35,707 nucleotides of DNA from an uncultured bacterium (lineage in GTDB: Bacteria > Bacillota_I > Bacilli_A > RF39 > UBA660), in assembly GCA_937863745.1 (NCBI GenBank), contig CALMHN010000061.1, forward strand, positions 1 through 35,707, in the 5' to 3' direction. The position numbers and the translations under genes are program-made. This document shows, piece by piece, positions 2,757-35,667 of the stretch. The notes beneath the pieces are model-generated. The model was given only the letters and a program-made list of their open reading frames with translations, searched no databases and was not told the DNA's origin. The stretch's first letter is position 1, and each line of letters begins with the position of its first letter.

Positions 2757-3764
2757 TCATATAGTTATATTACTGAATATTGATGATAAAATAGGATATA
2801 TCTCATTTACATAATGTGCAAAATCTATTCTATTATGCATATCATTATATGATGATAGATCAATATCATCACTGTTGATTATAGCTGTCATGTTCTTTAA
2901 CTTTAATTTTATGCTTGAGCCATCTGTAGTTTTATAAGCAAAATCTAATAATGAATCAGTATTATTAAATAAGAAAGTATCAATAATATAATCCATATCA
3001 CGTTCAGATGTAGCTAAACACAATCTGGATATTAGACTATAGAATATATTGGGGCTTAAAGAATCAAATCCTTTAAATGTAACCTGATTATTTTTGTTTA
3101 TTACACCAATCATATACTTTTGTTTAAAGAGTATCCATTTATAAACAGTTATTGATAATTGACCATATATATCATAGATATCATTTAATATTTTCATTTT
3201 ATATGGTTTTATATATGCTCCATCTACTTCACTTTTAATGATGTTCCCAATACGTTCAGCAACATACAATACATCATCATAAACCATATATCTTAGTTTA
3301 TATAATGTATCAATACCCATACAATGAATAATAATGTTTGTTAGAAAATAATTATATAAAAATTTCTTTGCTCTTTTGGGAAGATAACTTGAGGATGCTA
3401 AAATAGTACACATCTTAGTATAAAGAGCTAATGCATCTGCATCTAATACTTGTTCAGCATACGTTGTAAATGCTCTTTGCATATCTATCTTTATAATATT
3501 AGATGTAAATAATTCTTGTTTTGGATATATGTACTTTATAATAAATTCATCATTAGGTTTAGATGGTGTTGTTCTTTTAGAATATGGTTTTAATTCTTTC
3601 CAAAATAAATTAATTATATTATTATAATTGGTTAAAATATTATTTAATACATCATATGAAACAATCCAATCATAATAATGCTTTACATCATAAAGCAAAG
3701 TCTTTTCACAAACAATATATTTCATACCACATATATCTTTTAAAAAATGATAAAGGTTATACAA
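2757..3764 (-). CDS. Hypothetical protein, structural-module context
   Basis: 335-aa ORF with a TTG start 10 nt after AAGGGAGA. The nearby ATG is out of frame. I recognise no motif. Confidence 0.55.
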   Translation of the reverse strand: MYNLYHFLKDICGMKYIVCEKTLLYDVKHYYDWIVSYDVLNNILTNYNNIINLFWKELKPYSKRTTPSKPNDEFIIKYIYPKQELFTSNIIKIDMQRAFTTYAEQVLDADALALYTKMCTILASSSYLPKRAKKFLYNYFLTNIIIHCMGIDTLYKLRYMVYDDVLYVAERIGNIIKSEVDGAYIKPYKMKILNDIYDIYGQLSITVYKWILFKQKYMIGVINKNNQVTFKGFDSLSPNIFYSLISRLCLATSERDMDYIIDTFLFNNTDSLLDFAYKTTDGSSIKLKLKNMTAIINSDDIDLSSYNDMHNRIDFAHYVNEIYPILSSIFSNITI

Positions 3765-29884: not shown

Positions 29885-30874
29885 TTACCAAGTTAAATTA
29901 TCCATATGATCAATATTAATTCCAAATATATCTATAATTGGTTCTAGTCTCTTATATATTGCAATATCAAGCATAGCATCTATATCTGGATAAAAAATAG
30001 AGGTATCTAAATTAACTCCTTCAGGTACTGTAATAACATCAATCTGATCGTTTTTAATTAGCAAACCCTCAACACGCATTTGCTTTAATTTCTTATCATA
30101 ATCTTTGATCTTGCTACCATCTACTTTACTTATGGTAAATGTATATCCTCTATCTCCTTCATAAAAGGTAGGACCATATATGACATTGTATATTTTCATG
30201 CCTCTTATAGTCTTTGTCAATACTTTATATTCTCTAGCACCCCATCCACCTGGTACTCCTAAAGTATAATCACCAGCCATAAGTCTGGTTTTATATTCGT
30301 CTATATATTTGTCTATCAGATTTAAAATTTGAAAAGAACTATATTCTTCTCTTAATATCTTATCTATAACATCTTGTAACATCTGTTTGGTAAATCTTGG
30401 GAAATCTGCTCTAACCACCTCCATACCCGTGATACTTAGATCGTCTATTTTCTTTCCTTCTTTGTTGATGATCCATAATGCATACTTCTTCTTTGCATCT
30501 AAGAACATAGCTCTCTTAATAACTAATTCTTCCTTAAATGTAAAGTTATATTTAGTGGCAAGCTCAGAATCACCAGCATTATGCCTTTTAAGCATTTCAG
30601 GAATGATATATGTATTAATATATTCAGAACATTTTCTAACAATCTTTAAAGTAGCTTCTGTCTTTTCATCTTCACTTATTGAATCATATTTATCACCATA
30701 TAAAGATTTGAGCACTGGTTCAATAAAGAGAAACATTGAATCAGTATTATGTACTAAAATGTCATTAGCAAAAAACATATGGTTATTATCAACTTCGATA
30801 TCATATACATACTCTGGTATATTGTTTTCAATTTTCTCAACAGATGTTATTCTTTCCTTTACTATAGACATCAT
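29885..30874 (-). CDS. Family-B DNA polymerase C-terminal fragment: split-intein C-half followed by the motif C / thumb extein
   Basis: The first 43 aa end EYVYDIEVDNNHMFFANDILVHN, matching intein blocks F/G with terminal His-Asn. They are followed by TDSMFLFIEP, the second half of PolB motif C (YGDTDS). The gene has its own GGAGG SD and ATG. Confidence 0.9.
   Translation of the reverse strand: MMSIVKERITSVEKIENNIPEYVYDIEVDNNHMFFANDILVHNTDSMFLFIEPVLKSLYGDKYDSISEDEKTEATLKIVRKCSEYINTYIIPEMLKRHNAGDSELATKYNFTFKEELVIKRAMFLDAKKKYALWIINKEGKKIDDLSITGMEVVRADFPRFTKQMLQDVIDKILREEYSSFQILNLIDKYIDEYKTRLMAGDYTLGVPGGWGAREYKVLTKTIRGMKIYNVIYGPTFYEGDRGYTFTISKVDGSKIKDYDKKLKQMRVEGLLIKNDQIDVITVPEGVNLDTSIFYPDIDAMLDIAIYKRLEPIIDIFGINIDHMDNLTW
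30746..30874 (-). mobile_element. Split intein C-fragment (Int-C, 43 aa)
   Basis: Block F is VYDIEVDNNHMFFAN and block G is ILVHN, followed by +1 Thr (codon 30743-30745). Confidence 0.85.
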
Positions 30875-30893
30875 CTAATACCTCCTCAAAATA

Positions 30894-30915
30894 TACATAT
30901 ATATTATTATAATGA
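30894..30915 (+). promoter_or_regulatory. Promoter-like 22-nt repeat, copy 1 (contains TATAAT)
   Basis: TACATATATATTATTATAATGA is identical to the copy at 31104-31125. TATAAT can be read on both strands here (plus 30908-30913, minus 30906-30911). Confidence 0.5.
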
Positions 30916-31019
30916 TATGGAGTAATCCATATCAATCATATAACATTGCCACAGCAGAACCACCAGGCTCCCTAATAATATATCACATCTGGAGATATAT
31001 ATCTCCAAATTTTTTTAAT
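30916..31019 (+). ncRNA. Candidate small RNA of about 100 nt, hypothetical
   Basis: It starts just after repeat copy 1. It has a 5' hairpin ATATGGA-GTAA-TCCATAT and a comparatively GC-rich core GCCACAGCAGAACCACCAGGCTCCC. A 3' hairpin TGGAGAT-ATAT-ATCTCCA is followed by AAATTTTTTT. No SD-led ORF is present. Confidence 0.25.
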
Positions 31020-31103
31020 TGTCTTTATGGATTAAGTGTAGCATAATATCTCTCACTTATCAAGCATATCAATATTAATTATTACTTTAATAATATAAAA
31101 ATT

Positions 31104-31125
31104 TACATATATATTATTATAATGA
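31104..31125 (+). promoter_or_regulatory. Promoter-like 22-nt repeat, copy 2, upstream of the plus-strand cassette
   Basis: It matches copy 1 exactly over 22 nt and lies 74 nt upstream of the ATG at 31199. Confidence 0.5.
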
Positions 31126-31198
31126 AAGAAGAAGTTTGTAGCTATGTGTTACGAGCTTTTTTCTTTCAAATATTTTTTACTTTTAGGGAGGTATTAGC

Positions 31199-31420
31199 AT
31201 GTTTAAAGTTGTTGTTGAGTCCTTGTTTAATGACAGGTATGGAAAAGGTAAGAGGAAAGAATTTGTTGTCTTAAGCAAAGCTATTGCTATTCAAAAAGCA
31301 ATGGGGTTTAGTAAACATGCTTGTGTAGAAGTTGTAGATGATCTCCATAAACAATGTGTTGCTTATGGTGATCCAATAATAGGATTCAAGGAGATTGAGA
31401 ATTATGAGCACAATTTGTAA
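31199..31420 (+). CDS. Small hypothetical protein, first gene of the plus-strand cassette
   Basis: 73-aa ORF with ATG 7 nt after AGGGAGG. It overlaps the start of the next gene by 17 nt. Confidence 0.6.
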   Translation: MFKVVVESLFNDRYGKGKRKEFVVLSKAIAIQKAMGFSKHACVEVVDDLHKQCVAYGDPIIGFKEIENYEHNL

Positions 31421-31739
31421 TAAGATGTATAAAGCAGTACTGCCAACTACAGTATTGCCAAAAGATGGAATTTATCAGGTAAGGACACTTGAGACCTTAC
31501 CTGATATCACTGGGGTGCCTCATTATATAGGGCATCCTGCAACGAAGGTAATTGTAGAACAGCTTGGAGCAGTTGAAGCTTCCTCCAAGCTGTTCCAAGG
31601 ATTGGATGTTGGCGAAGCTGTTGTATGTTTTGCCATCAAGCAAGGAAGAAGTACTAGAAAGGATGATGGGTTCACAACTCCTCATCAAGAAGTTAACATT
31701 GATGATCTTTCTGTAAGAGAGATCATCAGATTAGAGTAA
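31404..31739 (+). CDS. DUF1874 family protein (AcrIII-1 / STIV B116 / YddF-like); candidate cyclic-oligoadenylate ring nuclease
   Basis: YKAVLPTTVLPKDGIYQV...HYIGHPATKVIVEQLG......VGEAVVCFAIKQGRSTRKDDG...VREIIRLE follows the DUF1874 pattern seen in SIRV1 gp29 and B116. That pattern is N..SINML...(I/A)IGHDSTI.L(I/V)N.LCG...., then (E/G)D(K/E)(L/A), a hydrophobic run and QRLEEGK. I place the start at ATG 31404, 10 nt after AAGGAG. The ORF track's TTG at 31395 is less likely. GC is about 40-47% against about 25% in the flanks. Confidence 0.65.
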   Translation: MSTICNKMYKAVLPTTVLPKDGIYQVRTLETLPDITGVPHYIGHPATKVIVEQLGAVEASSKLFQGLDVGEAVVCFAIKQGRSTRKDDGFTTPHQEVNIDDLSVREIIRLE

Positions 31740-31745
31740 TAGAAA

Positions 31746-31781
31746 ATGGAAATGATCTGAGAATACTCAGGTCATTTCCAT
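31746..31781 (+). terminator. Hairpin downstream of the DUF1874 gene, terminator or attenuator
   Basis: A 16-bp stem, ATGGAAATGATCTGAG / CTCAGGTCATTTCCAT, with one mismatch and loop AATA. The U-tract is weak. Confidence 0.45.
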
Positions 31782-31814
31782 AAATACATAATTAAGAATA
31801 AGGAGATGACAATA

Positions 31815-32306
31815 ATGAAAAAATTAACAAAATTATTTGTTTTATCTTTTATTATAAGCTACTTCTGTATAAATACAGGATTAGCATATGGGAATAATCT
31901 ACATTTAGGAACAATTCCAAATGTAGATTATAAAATAGCTGAAAATAATGGTAATAATACTATCACCATCAATGAAAGTGGTACATCTAACATTGATGTA
32001 GTGTTAGATGAATATGGTGATGTTTGCTTTAATATTAATAAAATAAATCTCTATTTTACTGCAAATATATTTGCTGTGTTAGATATCTTAACACAGCTTG
32101 ATGTAATTGAGCCAGGCTCATATAGAAATATGATTTTGGATGACAATGGAGTGACATTTGAAGTTGGTGTCAACTCTGTGAAAAAGGATAACGTCATGAT
32201 GTGCATTAGTAATCAAGATATATCACTAATTCTAGACATTAAAACACCTAAACAGTTTCAATGTCTAGAAGATATAGAAAACAATATTCGCTCCTTATTT
32301 AAATGA
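31815..32306 (+). CDS. Secreted protein of unknown function (signal peptide)
   Basis: I place the start at ATG 31815, 9 nt after AAGGAG. The N-terminus MKKLTKLFVLSFIISYFCINTGLAYG-NN is a classic signal peptide. Confidence 0.65.
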   Translation: MKKLTKLFVLSFIISYFCINTGLAYGNNLHLGTIPNVDYKIAENNGNNTITINESGTSNIDVVLDEYGDVCFNINKINLYFTANIFAVLDILTQLDVIEPGSYRNMILDDNGVTFEVGVNSVKKDNVMMCISNQDISLILDIKTPKQFQCLEDIENNIRSLFK

Positions 32307-32313
32307 AATAGAT

Positions 32314-32356
32314 AAAGATATCAAGCGTGATTAAATGAATCACGCTTGATATCTTT
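32314..32356. terminator. Bidirectional terminator between the cassette and the polymerase N-fragment
   Basis: A perfect 19-bp stem, AAAGATATCAAGCGTGATT / AATCACGCTTGATATCTTT, with loop AAATG and T-rich flanks on both strands. Confidence 0.8.
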
Positions 32357-32382
32357 TATTTAAGTAGTATATTTCACTATAT

Positions 32383-35300
32383 TTATTTTTGGTTTGTCAA
32401 TACAAGATCAGAATCCAATATCTCATTTGGTTTAACTTGCATTAATTGTCCGTCTCTCTCAACCATAATAGAATGGTCTTCAGTTACAATTAATTCTTTT
32501 CCACTTTCAGTTCTGATTCTATACATTGGTTTATTAACTTTATGTCGTGACATATTATTTATTGGTCTATATACAGCATCAGAATCTTCATATGTAAGTA
32601 CTTTGTCATTTGCAAAGATATATTCTCTTCCTATATAATTCATAAGTTTGTATTCCTTATGCCTTTCAAATAGATCTTTGATTGGTATACCTTCTGGATA
32701 TTGTTCAGTATTTATTTTTGTATTTTCATCAACAGAATCACCATACACTATATTCTCCAGTACATCAGCATCAAGAAATTTTGTATCAAATTCATATGGT
32801 TCAATATCCATCTTATGAGCATCTCTCATTTTATTTAAATACTGATGAATATGATATGCACCCATTGTTACTATTTCTCTTCCAGATGCAGTTATAGTCT
32901 CTGCAGATGGAAAATGAAACAGTCGAAAATATTGATTAGCAATTCCACCATATAGTGAGTTAGTAAGAACCTTATAAGTAAATTGCCAGTTATTATATCT
33001 TTCTGCTAACATATGATTATTATTCTCAATAGCTTTAAACATTTCATTTTTATATCGTTTGCGTTCTCTAATAAGCATATCTATAATTTCATAATAAACT
33101 GATAATTTTGTATTATGATTGACATACATTGTACCCATTATTGTTATTATTAAATTGTATTTAGTTATAGTCTCATGTAATTTCTGTACTGTTATCTGTT
33201 TAACATTTAAATTCTTATCTTCATAATTAATAAGTCTATCTGGTTGAGATAATAATTCATCTCTATTATAGATATACTCACGAGCTATATATTCATCTAC
33301 CTTACCAACATAGGTGTCAATAGAAATATTATATCGTGCTATGATATATGGATATAGAGAAGAAAGATCCAAATCAGCCAACCAGTTATATAATCCTTTT
33401 AATGGTTTTCTTACAAAAGCACCTTTGAGCTTTTCTGTTTTCTGATCATTATCTTTATCATATTCATATTTTTTACATATAACTGTCTTATTTTGTTTAT
33501 CTAATGTTGTAAATAGAATACCATCTATAATTGGAAGTGTGCTGAATGATTCCTCCCAACTGATGTTGGTAGCTCTTATAATGTTAAATTGAATATCAAT
33601 ATATTTAAGTTTATTGTCCAACTTTCTAACAAGATGAACATCATTAATATTATAAGCAATGAATCTATTGGGATCTGATAACCACATATCATCAAATCGT
33701 TTGTCAAGAGACAGTTTCTTTATACCAAGTTCAAATTCAGCAATAAAACCAAGTGTATAAGATTCTCTTTTACTAAATGTTCTTTTCTTATACAAGGTTA
33801 AATAATCACATTCCACGACATATGGAATGTATGGTTTATTAGTTCTCTCATTAATAAAAATACGACCATATTTGTTTTTACATTCTATTCCAAGATATTG
33901 TGATCTATTAATAATAAATGGCCAGTCAAATGCTGATGAGTTCCATCCTGTTACAAGATCAGGATCTATTTCATCAAATTTTTGAATAAAACCATTCAAC
34001 ATCTTTCTTTCATCATTATATACAAATATTTCAATATTACACTCATCTTTATATTCTAGATGTTTTATTATTTTTTGTTTATCAATGTTCAAATTGAATG
34101 AGTTGTTTATAAATGTATAATAGGTATCAGTATAGTTATCATACAGAGTTATCAACGATATAGCATATCTCTTTGCAGCTGCCATCATGTCATCGAGAAG
34201 CATCATATTGCCATTGAGAAACAATTCTATATCTATAGCAGCAATTCTTAATGGTTGTTCAGTCTCTGTATAAGTGTTTCTAAACTGAATATTCTTATAT
34301 ACTGATAGATTCATATCTCCAAAGACATTAAACCCTTTACTCTTCAAATCATTTATTACATTTATTCTATCTTTAAACGGTACAACTTTGAGCTTTAATT
34401 TATCCTTGTATTCAACAGTATTGTTTGATTTACCATAATACAAAGCATATTTATCATCTGTGGTATGAATTATTTTATCTTGTCCTCTTCTTAATATATA
34501 ATTAACTTCAGATTTAAGATAATTGTATACTGTATTGACTAACATTATATTATCTGATGTATTACTTGTGGTATCAGTATCACTCTTATTGTCATTAACT
34601 GTTTCATATTTAGTATTGTTAGGAATAGGAAATAACTTCCTCACATCATCAGTAGTATAAGACATATGTGGTTGAACATTATCTTTTGATTCTACAGCAT
34701 ATCTTATTTGTTTTAACCTATTAGCAAAAATATCGTATCTGGACATATTTCTGCATATTGCTGATGGATGAATACATGGCAATAATAGATGATCATTATA
34801 TTTATATATCTTTGTCATAGCATCAGTTATCTTATCTGTTATACCAAATCTACTACATGGATAATTACCAAGTGGAACTATAACAGCATCAGCAGGTAAT
34901 TTAGAAATGATTAACTCTAGATTGTCAAAACAATATGCTATCTCATCTTTCATTGGTGGGTTTGATGGTTGATGAAAACATAAACAAACATTCATAACAC
35001 CCCAATGAATATCATTAAAACCAGTATTATCTAATGTTTGTCTTAATAACTGTCCTGCACGTCCAACAAAGGGTTTTCCTTCTTTAATTTCATTGACAGC
35101 TGGTGCTTCTCCAACAAATAATACTTTAACTTGAGATATATCATTTGTTGTAAAATCAAAAATAGTTCTTTGTACATCATCTTTATTAGATTTGCATAAT
35201 GCACATTGTGTAATGAGTCTCTTTTCTATCTCATCTTTCAATGGAGAAATAGTATCTATAGTATCTTCAACATTATTGGAAGAAACAATAGATTCTTGAT

Positions 35301-35667
35301 TAAAACTCTCAGCATTATTTTTTATCATAAGATATGTTTTGATATCTTTTTCTGATAAATAGGGATACTTTAGTTTTAATTGATTTATTTCATCAGTAGT
35401 TTTCTTTGATTTGTTTGACATAAATTGTATTTGTTTGGATCTGTTAATATATCTGTGAAATTCAGATAATTTATCAAAAGGTACATTTCGTGCAAGTATA
35501 GGATTAGTATTAATCAACTGATCTAAGTATATACAAGATAGCACATCATCTTCAGATATATTTAATATTGTGGATACATTAAGTTGCTTGACTGTATCAT
35601 CCAATGAATCAGTCTTATGTTGTATATAATAAATATATTTGGTTAGTGGTGATAACTCTTTTGCCAT
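32383..35667 (-). CDS. Family-B DNA polymerase N-terminal fragment: UDG-like domain, 3'-5' exonuclease, palm motifs A and B, first half of motif C, then split-intein N-half
   Basis: Motifs present are Exo I IAAIDIELF, Exo II GWNSSAFDWPFI, Exo III YNINDVHLV, motif A DLDLSSLYPYII and motif B KVLTNSLYGG. After ...ENIVYGD the sequence continues directly into intein sequence rather than TDS. Confidence 0.92.
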   Translation of the reverse strand: MAKELSPLTKYIYYIQHKTDSLDDTVKQLNVSTILNISEDDVLSCIYLDQLINTNPILARNVPFDKLSEFHRYINRSKQIQFMSNKSKKTTDEINQLKLKYPYLSEKDIKTYLMIKNNAESFNQESIVSSNNVEDTIDTISPLKDEIEKRLITQCALCKSNKDDVQRTIFDFTTNDISQVKVLFVGEAPAVNEIKEGKPFVGRAGQLLRQTLDNTGFNDIHWGVMNVCLCFHQPSNPPMKDEIAYCFDNLELIISKLPADAVIVPLGNYPCSRFGITDKITDAMTKIYKYNDHLLLPCIHPSAICRNMSRYDIFANRLKQIRYAVESKDNVQPHMSYTTDDVRKLFPIPNNTKYETVNDNKSDTDTTSNTSDNIMLVNTVYNYLKSEVNYILRRGQDKIIHTTDDKYALYYGKSNNTVEYKDKLKLKVVPFKDRINVINDLKSKGFNVFGDMNLSVYKNIQFRNTYTETEQPLRIAAIDIELFLNGNMMLLDDMMAAAKRYAISLITLYDNYTDTYYTFINNSFNLNIDKQKIIKHLEYKDECNIEIFVYNDERKMLNGFIQKFDEIDPDLVTGWNSSAFDWPFIINRSQYLGIECKNKYGRIFINERTNKPYIPYVVECDYLTLYKKRTFSKRESYTLGFIAEFELGIKKLSLDKRFDDMWLSDPNRFIAYNINDVHLVRKLDNKLKYIDIQFNIIRATNISWEESFSTLPIIDGILFTTLDKQNKTVICKKYEYDKDNDQKTEKLKGAFVRKPLKGLYNWLADLDLSSLYPYIIARYNISIDTYVGKVDEYIAREYIYNRDELLSQPDRLINYEDKNLNVKQITVQKLHETITKYNLIITIMGTMYVNHNTKLSVYYEIIDMLIRERKRYKNEMFKAIENNNHMLAERYNNWQFTYKVLTNSLYGGIANQYFRLFHFPSAETITASGREIVTMGAYHIHQYLNKMRDAHKMDIEPYEFDTKFLDADVLENIVYGDSVDENTKINTEQYPEGIPIKDLFERHKEYKLMNYIGREYIFANDKVLTYEDSDAVYRPINNMSRHKVNKPMYRIRTESGKELIVTEDHSIMVERDGQLMQVKPNEILDSDLVLTNQK
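32386..32736 (-). mobile_element. Split intein N-fragment (Int-N, 117 aa)
   Basis: It begins with Ser (codon 32734-32736) in SVDENTKI, matching block A. GKELIVTEDHSIMV matches block B (TxxH). The ORF then stops, and there is no endonuclease domain. Confidence 0.85.
34690..35235 (-). other. Family-4 uracil-DNA-glycosylase-like domain fused to the polymerase N-terminus
   Basis: Motif A is GEAPAVNEIKEGKPFVGRAGQLL and motif B is CIHPSAICRN. Four Cys sit at Fe-S-cluster-like positions (QCALCKS and NVCLCFHQPSNPPMKDEIAYC). Confidence 0.75.

Follow-up and report, generated by a model that had tools for sequence, protein, structure and literature searches.

Within a 35,707-nucleotide (nt) stretch of DNA assembled from an uncultured bacterium (GCA_937863745.1, contig CALMHN010000061.1, positions 1 to 35,707; this whole stretch is hereafter the window), the gene for a family B DNA polymerase (PolB) is found in two pieces, each carrying one part of an intein. 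The pieces are minus-strand open reading frames (ORFs) at 32383-35667 (1094 amino acids [aa]) and 29885-30874 (329 aa), which lie 1.5 kb apart with three plus-strand ORFs between them. The longer ORF, or N-half, consists of a 977-aa N-extein (32737-35667, minus strand) that ends in ENIVYGD and of a 117-aa N-intein (32386-32736, minus strand) that runs to a stop codon at 32383-32385. The shorter ORF, or C-half, opens with a 43-aa C-intein (30746-30874, minus strand) and continues as a C-extein of 286 aa plus the stop codon (29885-30745, minus strand), the first residue of which, Thr+1, begins the sequence TDSMF and then LFIEP.

The N-extein comprises an N-terminal region, a family-4 uracil-DNA glycosylase (UDG) domain, 3'-5' exonuclease motifs I-III, polymerase motifs A and B, and the first half of motif C (VYGD). 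It matched the Pfam families UDG, DNA_pol_B_exo1, and DNA_pol_B, as well as the DNA polymerase family PHROG 262 (E = 6e-97). The C-extein completes motif C, bears the KKKY motif and the thumb domain, and aligned to positions 269-356 of Pfam DNA_pol_B and 575-847 of PHROG 262. PHROG DNA-polymerase families span both ORFs, with 262 and 1918 each matching the two of them. When joined, the exteins make a protein of 1263 aa in which the junction reads YGDTDS and the motifs form a full series (UDG GEAPA and HPS, Exo I-III, motif A DLSSLYP, motif B KVLTNSLYG, motif C YGDTDS, and KKKY); the predicted tryptic peptide across the junction of the spliced polymerase is FLDADVLENIVYGDTDSMFLFIEPVLK. Among contiguous polymerases, the nearest one found was P0126 (33% identity), which has ITGDTDSVF over the same junction. 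An alternative genetic code with readthrough of the N-half stop was ruled out, the stop being a TAA with a hairpin and antisense genes beyond it. The UDG domain (34723-35139, minus strand; N-half residues 177-315), which is fused N-terminal to the exonuclease-polymerase portion, is itself preceded by ~170 aa without an assigned function, and the same UDG-PolB fusion was seen in two related contigs, L006 and L007.

Both intein fragments carry the blocks of a splicing domain. The N-intein begins with Ser1 of block A (SVDENTKI), passes through an NX motif (MSRHKV) and block B (VTEDHS, the TxxH motif, within LIVTEDHSIMV), and ends in LTNQK. The C-intein runs from MMSIV to VYDIEVDNNHMFFANDILVHN, with block F as VYDIEVDNNHMFFAN and block G as ILVHN, immediately before Thr+1. 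No cysteine occurs in the fused 160-aa intein. Hidden Markov models from NCBIfam matched at both ORF ends, with TIGR01445 (intein_Nterm) at 48.6 bits over N-half residues 979-1069 (cut-off 24.5) and TIGR01443 (intein_Cterm) at 32.4 bits over C-half residues 22-44 (cut-off 15.6). The matches to Pfam Intein_splicing are complementary, with the N-half covering profile positions 11-93 and the C-half 119-155 of 155. Fused in silico, the intein scored 55.9 bits against Pfam PF14890 (gathering score 35.8), covering positions 10-155 of the 155. Its closest match in the PDB was 9HTH, the Aes123 PolB1 intein (E = 7e-21), followed by gp41-1, a CDC21-type cell-division-control-protein intein, PI-PkoII, TFIIB, RadA, PolII, PolB16, and NrdJ-1. 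The R/K-H 'NX' motif is a signature of Ser1 inteins (PMC10189870), and MSRHKV in the window aligns with the K-H of the Aes516 intein. The hallmarks of a class 1 split intein were found together (Ser1 with TxxH, HN with Thr+1, complementary Hint fragments of 117 and 43 aa, and a restored host motif), as were those of the cysteine-less Ser1 subgroup (Ser1/Thr+1, the NX motif, and zero cysteine). An earlier note on this DNA had placed the break within motif C of PolB, had joined the exteins into YGDTDS and 1263 aa, and had described a canonical split mini-intein with Ser1, TxxH, and His-Asn, in which every residue required for trans-splicing is intact. The ORF coordinates and lengths proved exact, the profile matches at both ORF ends agree with the description, and the contiguous P0126, which reads GDTDS, supports the insertion point.

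A search with the C-half returned ~24 clusters of proteins of 325-330 aa (38-98% identity), every one starting with a C-intein. Ten residues (Y24, D25, N37, L40, V41, H42, N43, T44, D45, and S46) are invariant among 26 aligned C-halves that share 33-98% identity. On the other side of the break, YGD|S...VTEDHS is common to the N-halves of four relatives, and Ser1, R/K-H, and TxxH (TEDH; TADH in Aes516) are kept in the N-halves of L003, L006, L007, P0124, and Aes516. Taking both halves, the splice residues hold in relatives down to ~35% identity. Compared with L007, the 79%-identical relative, the ratio of nonsynonymous to synonymous substitution rates (dN/dS) stayed at 0.05-0.10 across the exteins and reached 0.13 in the C-intein and 0.26 in the N-intein, values that are rough because synonymous sites are near saturation. 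The gene order of the window recurs exactly in six independent assemblies made from different samples with different assemblers, and an assembly artefact is therefore excluded; the layout also recurs on IMG/VR contigs that are 47 kb and 112 kb long. As far as the sequences tell, this phage clade has long carried the split and passes it on stably.

Considered together, we think it highly probable that the window encodes a naturally split, cysteine-free class 1 intein (Ser1/Thr+1), which breaks motif C (YGD|TDS) of a phage replicative PolB, and that canonical trans-splicing restores YGDTDS. Homology to inteins shown to splice (Aes123 PolB1, and also CP21 and LCGC14) backs this reading strongly, if indirectly, as does purifying selection on the splice residues. 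The 1094-aa N-precursor and the 329-aa C-precursor would be made from separate mRNAs, and the 117-aa and 43-aa intein halves would then associate and fold as one Hint domain. An N-O acyl shift at Ser1 would give an ester that is attacked by Thr+1, with oxyester intermediates; cyclisation of the terminal Asn would release the intein, and an O-N shift would leave a normal peptide bond. The expected product is a 1263-aa UDG-Exo-Pol protein with its metal-binding motif, YGDTDS, intact. Several points weigh against this reading. Splicing in the window is inferred from sequence alone, and a second polymerase may possibly be encoded elsewhere in the genome of at least 112 kb. Each intein half alone falls under the Pfam gathering score, as expected for halves, and the charge complementarity known from some split inteins is not evident, with a net charge of 0 in the C-terminal lobe of IntN and of -5 in IntC. 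The roughness of the dN/dS values counts here as well. Additionally, the native Aes123 intein splices only ~30% in vitro (PMC11923092), so splicing efficiency in the window is not to be assumed.

The noncoding DNA around the gap bears on how the two halves are expressed. The C-half gene starts with ATG and is preceded by the Shine-Dalgarno sequence GAGGAGG at 30887-30881. Further upstream, at 30895-30935 on the minus strand, lie the first copy of a repeat and a promoter-like site for the C-half gene, with a -35 element TTGATA at 30935-30930 and a -10 element TATAAT at 30911-30906; this TTGATA-18-TATAAT site (30935-30906) has 11/12 matches and is the top sigma-70-like site of the region. The repeat is an exact direct repeat of 21 nt, ACATATATATTATTATAATGA, found at 30895 and at 31105 (two copies versus 0.08 expected by chance), with TATAAT on both strands. 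Copy 2 (31105-31125, plus strand) is the likely promoter of the plus-strand operon, with its TATAAT ~75 nt ahead of the leading gene, g73. The repeat and the C-half Shine-Dalgarno sequence are kept in L007. When the 15-nt core of the repeat was taken as a genome-wide promoter motif, exact matches were confined to the two gap copies and looser matches were at chance level. At the other end of the gap, between the end of the N-half gene (minus strand) and the end of the operon (plus strand), a hairpin at 32314-32356 has a 19-bp stem, the longest among the 7 terminators found by a scan that expected 1.5 in shuffled sequence, and it probably ends transcription from both directions. Rfam gave chance-level matches only for this hairpin, and ARAGORN found no tRNA. 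GC skew reverses sign at the plus-strand gap ORFs. The earlier note had assigned the halves to separate transcription units, with a Shine-Dalgarno sequence and ATG belonging to the C-half, a 'bidirectional terminator', and a 'promoter-like repeat'; the start signals were located as described, the terminator corresponds to the hairpin and the repeat to the two 21-nt copies, and the promoter-like site, the hairpin, and the opposite-strand ORFs of the gap are consistent with separate units.

A further noncoding feature was observed at 30916-31015 (plus strand), between the C-half start and the operon and just downstream of repeat copy 1. This block is conserved and includes a palindromic hairpin (30990-31007) that, with the T-run after it, spans 30990-31015. 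Both block and hairpin are kept in L007, even though the lengths of the indels there are not multiples of three. Its folding z-score was -2.25, and it had no match in Rfam. The block could be a small RNA of ~90 nt with its own promoter and terminator, or else a leader or regulatory element.

Explanations other than trans-splicing were weighed against these observations. T4-like phages and archaea have PolB and NrdA enzymes that are split without any intein and function as complexes (PMC2677866), and the PolB of the uncultured phage LR756508 is broken without an intein; by analogy, the halves in the window could assemble non-covalently into a two-chain polymerase, with the intein fragments acting as a dimerisation module and no peptide bond being formed. 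The break, however, falls between the catalytic aspartates of motif C, which would leave an unexcised 160-aa Hint domain inside the active site, and residues that serve the chemistry only (Ser1, the penultimate His, the terminal Asn, Thr+1, and the NX His) are invariant over the clade. Since the closest relatives do splice as well, a non-covalent enzyme seems very improbable. A decaying polymerase gene, or a chimera of assembly, in a phage that replicates with another polymerase is scarcely credible, even though the window makes up 35.7 kb of at least 112 kb and leaves room for such an enzyme: neither ORF is disrupted, the exteins evolve with a dN/dS of 0.05-0.10, no polymerase or exonuclease motif is missing, the six assemblies agree on the layout, and the locus lies in a replication module, beside a DnaB-like helicase.

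The split might also act as a regulatory gate, such that active replicase forms only when both halves are expressed from their separate promoters and replication is timed post-translationally, with the convergent cargo operon possibly modulating this. That the C-half has a promoter-like site and Shine-Dalgarno sequence of its own, that the N-half is followed by a hairpin and convergent genes, and that the arrangement is kept over long evolutionary distances would all fit such a gate. In L006, however, the gap genes lie on the polymerase strand, ~50 nt before the C-half, which allows co-transcription, and a split intein is difficult to undo, which would account for the retention just as well. 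We regard gating as quite unlikely; it would in any case add to trans-splicing and not replace it.

The gap itself is occupied by a convergent three-gene operon on the plus strand (g73, g111, and g163), all three of which are called as genes in the six assemblies. None of the three matched a family of Pfam, PHROG, or NCBIfam, and their counterparts in L007 are 52% (g73), 87% (g111), and 36% (g163) identical. As the earlier note had it, the gap holds cargo genes and no recognisable homing endonuclease: the gap ORFs gave no HNH, GIY-YIG, LAGLIDADG, or Vsr match in Pfam, PHROGs, and NCBIfam, nor did fold searches, for which structure models were made of g111 and g163 only. The first gene, g73 (31199-31420, plus strand), encodes a small protein and has the Shine-Dalgarno sequence AGGGAGG.

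The second gene, g111 (31404-31739, plus strand), encodes what fold and profile comparison suggest may be a divergent DUF1874 / STIV B116 / AcrIII-1-like protein. Its family is widespread (55-69% identity), with an invariant His44 and a conserved I-G-H-x-x-T (IGHPxT) motif. An AlphaFold2 (AF2) model of g111 had a predicted local distance difference test score (pLDDT) of 86.8, and the top Foldseek matches of this model were Crn2, AFV3-109, SIRV1 ORF114, AcrIII-1 (6scf), and STIV B116, with TM-scores of ~0.55 and E-values of 1e-3 to 1e-2. An hhalign comparison linked g111, with 92% probability, to a DUF1874 gene that occupies the corresponding position in the L003 gap (3176-3478, minus strand). 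That gene matched STIV B116 with E = 5e-13, and its GH falls opposite His47, the absolutely conserved catalytic residue of AcrIII-1 (SIRV1 gp29); His44 of g111 thus reaches the catalytic His47 by a two-step alignment through the L003 gene. Direct comparison of g111 with Pfam PF08960 gave no match, weak matches being obtained for 3/30 family members, and a search of PDB sequences with the g111 family profile found nothing. The protein is similar to AcrIII-1 and DUF1874 in size, predicted fold, and the I-G-H-x-x-T motif, but differs in having no PF08960 match and weak Foldseek E-values (1e-3 to 1e-2), and the relationship comes solely from the fold search and profile comparison. On that basis g111 is a candidate cyclic-tetra-adenylate ring nuclease, that is, an anti-type-III-CRISPR protein.

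The third gene, g163 (31815-32306, plus strand), encodes a protein with an N-terminal signal or membrane helix, a beta-sandwich, and a C-terminal helix. An exhaustive HMMER search of 1.84 billion representatives returned two real homologues, which makes g163 a fast-evolving near-orphan; its AF2 model (pLDDT 71) had weak, generic PH-like fold matches (TM 0.3-0.4), none to a nuclease. The fast-evolving g163 (36% identity to L007) adjoins g111 (87% identity to L007). A role of g163 at the cell surface or in exclusion is speculative.

The window encodes a tail sheath, large terminase, baseplate proteins, major head protein, head protease, and portal, and because of these genes its source is taken to be a contractile-tailed phage, of ~29% G+C. 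A DnaB-like helicase adjoins the C-half, and the locus lies in a replication module. The genome, represented at ~112 kb by IMGVR_UViG_3300033998_000095, is at least 112 kb, of which the window covers 35.7 kb. Searched by Megablast, the 5.8-kb region had no match among 50,697 phage records, and the phage thus has no close cultured relative in that set. More distant members of the clade (41% identity) are carried on jumbo-phage contigs of 275-284 kb. The closely related L007 (ENA ERZ795051 NODE_4754; protein P0002; 79% identical) bears the NCBI label 'MAG: Candidatus Diapherotrites archaeon'. Given its close kinship to the window and the myovirus structural genes there, the archaeal label is probably a binning error and L007 a phage contig.

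Within the clade the split is constant and the gap varies from 1.3 to 7.8 kb, with jumbo-phage relatives at 4.1-7.8 kb. The shortest gap, 1.3 kb in L006, has DUF6557 and ThyX genes on the polymerase strand. Gaps of 1.5 kb were found in L007, with content as in the window, and in L015 and L016, for which the length alone is recorded. L018-L020 have gaps of 4.1-4.8 kb with several genes, including ThyX, and L003 one of 6.6 kb with 11 genes, including DUF1874, SLT, ThyX, and QueT. A 60%-identical relative has a genuine DUF1874 gene among its cargo. The longest gap, 7.8 kb in L021-L025, contains ThyX, a CoiA-like gene, and a Cas12f-like gene with a CRISPR-like array.

Several of these gaps hold features of their own. 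In L021 (7628-9961; also in L022, L023, and L025, IMG/VR jumbo-phage contigs of up to 284 kb), a 494-aa ORF in the PolB gap has a Cas12f1-like TNB domain (38.5 bits, cut-off 26.3) and a weak OrfB_IS605 match, and 3' of it stand ~10 copies of a 36-nt repeat with a 66-nt period, degenerating towards the C-half. Judged by these matches, the ORF and repeats look like a compact phage-borne type V CRISPR locus. Most relatives have a thyX (Thy1) gene here, in the PolB gap of L003, L006, and L018-L021 and just upstream of the C-half in L005, but it is present in neither the window nor L007. The ThyX gene of L005 (2894-4480) is itself intein-bearing, with the Pfam order Thy1-Intein_splicing-Thy1. No N-half was found for L005 within the 4.9 kb available upstream or 10 kb downstream of its C-half.

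Beyond the clade, the HN|TDS allele was found in viral contigs as contiguous mini-inteins (L026-29, L031, and L038), as contiguous inteins with an insert of ~250 aa (L030, L033, L039, and L040), as adjacent split genes (L041-43; L032 is similar, with an extra ~0.55 kb of N-ORF after the N-intein match), and as split genes ~1 kb apart (L035-37). On these sequences, the series from contiguous to split agrees with how Dassa et al. (PMC2677866) model gene breaking. The 484-kb genome of the uncultured phage LR756508.1 (L002; 1048-8972 and 10363-11757) has a 312-aa intein at YTD|S...HN|TDS, in which LAGLIDADG-like motifs were read by eye. Its PolB carries, besides that intein, one in the first piece and then an intein-free break between motifs B and C, with ~3 kb of genes between, and a neighbouring clamp-loader-like gene has an apparent mini-intein in Walker A (GTGK|C...VCHN|TS).

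In the window, the endonuclease by which the split was presumably created has been lost, and the gap, to judge from its genes, now behaves as ordinary variable genome that gathers accessory genes, here including the AcrIII-1-like gene. A broader reading that joins these observations is doubtful in our view: the gap would be a lasting accessory island that rides with the replicase and is reloaded with defence or counter-defence cargo, the separate promoters might time replicase assembly, and the insertion point would have slid by two residues compared with the nearest sequence relatives, from DTD|S with Ser+1 to GD|TDS with Thr+1, a shift that is rarely documented.

The locus supplies a natural, well-supported case from a phage clade that is large, diverse, and uncultured, and in which the essential replicase appears to depend on trans-splicing. 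Related viral contigs show, at one insertion site, every proposed stage of gene breaking, from a contiguous mini-intein through an intein with an insert, an adjacent split, and a gap of ~1 kb to a multi-gene gap. To phage biology, the candidate AcrIII-1-like gene, together with what relatives carry in the same place, suggests a hotspot of accessory genes in the gap. Protein engineering may gain a candidate tool for orthogonal ligation in this wholly cysteine-free natural Ser1/Thr+1 split intein, whose phage is presumably mesophilic; such inteins are described in the literature as very rare, and the characterised natural phage PolB examples (Aes123, CP21, LCGC14, and GOM-OPS-1) are Ser+1.

The closest characterised system is the Aes123 PolB1 intein (9HTH) of T4-like Aeromonas phages, which is naturally split into 120 and 39 aa, is cysteine-less, and has been shown to trans-splice (PMC11923092). 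It and Aes516 (gp43B1/gp43B2), the halves of which GenBank labels as N- and C-intein precursors, have in common with the window a Ser1 class 1 intein that is split, lacks cysteine, and lies in motif C of a phage PolB. They differ in the insertion point, YIDTD|S with Ser+1, which is two residues downstream of YGD|TDS with Thr+1 in the window. The Aeromonas halves are also adjacent overlapping genes, whereas those of the window lie 1.5 kb apart with opposite-strand genes between. Assignment of the window intein to the Aes123 'PolB1' allele was accordingly rejected, as the window and the whole clade have YGD|TDS with Thr+1, not DTD|S with Ser+1. The inteins are homologous all the same, that of the window being 51% identical to that of Lak-B5 and 42.5% to that of Aes516, its nearest relatives in sequence and both of them DTD|S alleles. 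Other published PolB split inteins include PolB16 (PMC10189870), and Aes123 PolB1, CP21 PolB1, LCGC14 PolB2, and GOM-OPS-1 PolB2 are all Ser1/Ser+1 (PMC12707363).

A related intein, likewise free of cysteine (AGDTD|S...AHN|S), splits PolB in Prevotella phage Lak-B5 (L014; 4202-7966), where a gap of ~2 kb separates the halves. This gap contains a 233-aa ORF with a Vsr/EDxHD-like IEFYGDFYH motif and no Pfam match. The Lak-B5 N-piece, which lies near another ORF with a weak Vsr match, has ~147 extein residues only, indicating that PolB is broken at least once more upstream. In the Pseudomonas jumbo phage MIJ3, an HNH gene stands between the two parts of a split PolB intein (PMC6892783). MIJ3 and Salicola phage SCTP-2 have blocks closely similar to those of the window (SVDGST..., VTEDHSIMV, VYD..., and NILVHN; PMC6892783). 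MIJ3 differs in keeping its homing endonuclease gene and is quoted with Ser after HN, and SCTP-2 differs in carrying, at the exact site of the window (YGD|S...KN|TDS, Thr+1), a contiguous mini-intein that is not split.

The arrangement resembles the 'fractured genes' of Dassa et al. (2009; PMC2677866), in which an essential replication or nucleotide gene is broken at an intein and the halves stay in one locus, but the free-standing homing endonuclease that defines those genes was not detected in the gap of the window. It fits step IV of their model, at which the endonuclease is lost and the halves start uncoupling (PMC2677866). The earlier note overrated the novelty of the locus. Split inteins in motif C of phage PolB have been published and used in biotechnology, and the fractured-gene model already predicts, as its last stage, halves that are separated with no endonuclease between them. 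Nanoarchaeum equitans PolB and cyanobacterial DnaE likewise encode a replicative polymerase in two genes, with a split intein and no endonuclease (PMC2677866). N. equitans Pol is cysteine-less too, but both of these systems belong to cellular genomes in which the halves are far apart, and N. equitans Pol is thermophilic. We presume that N. equitans Pol uses a D|T site with Thr+1, as in the window. Split PolB inteins in motif C (Aes123, CP21, MIJ3, and Nanoarchaeum), and a contiguous mini-intein at this exact site (SCTP-2), were thus already known, and the window holds a system of the same kind, set apart by its GD|TDS site with Thr+1, its freedom from cysteine, and a gap in which, with no detectable endonuclease, accessory genes now stand between the halves.

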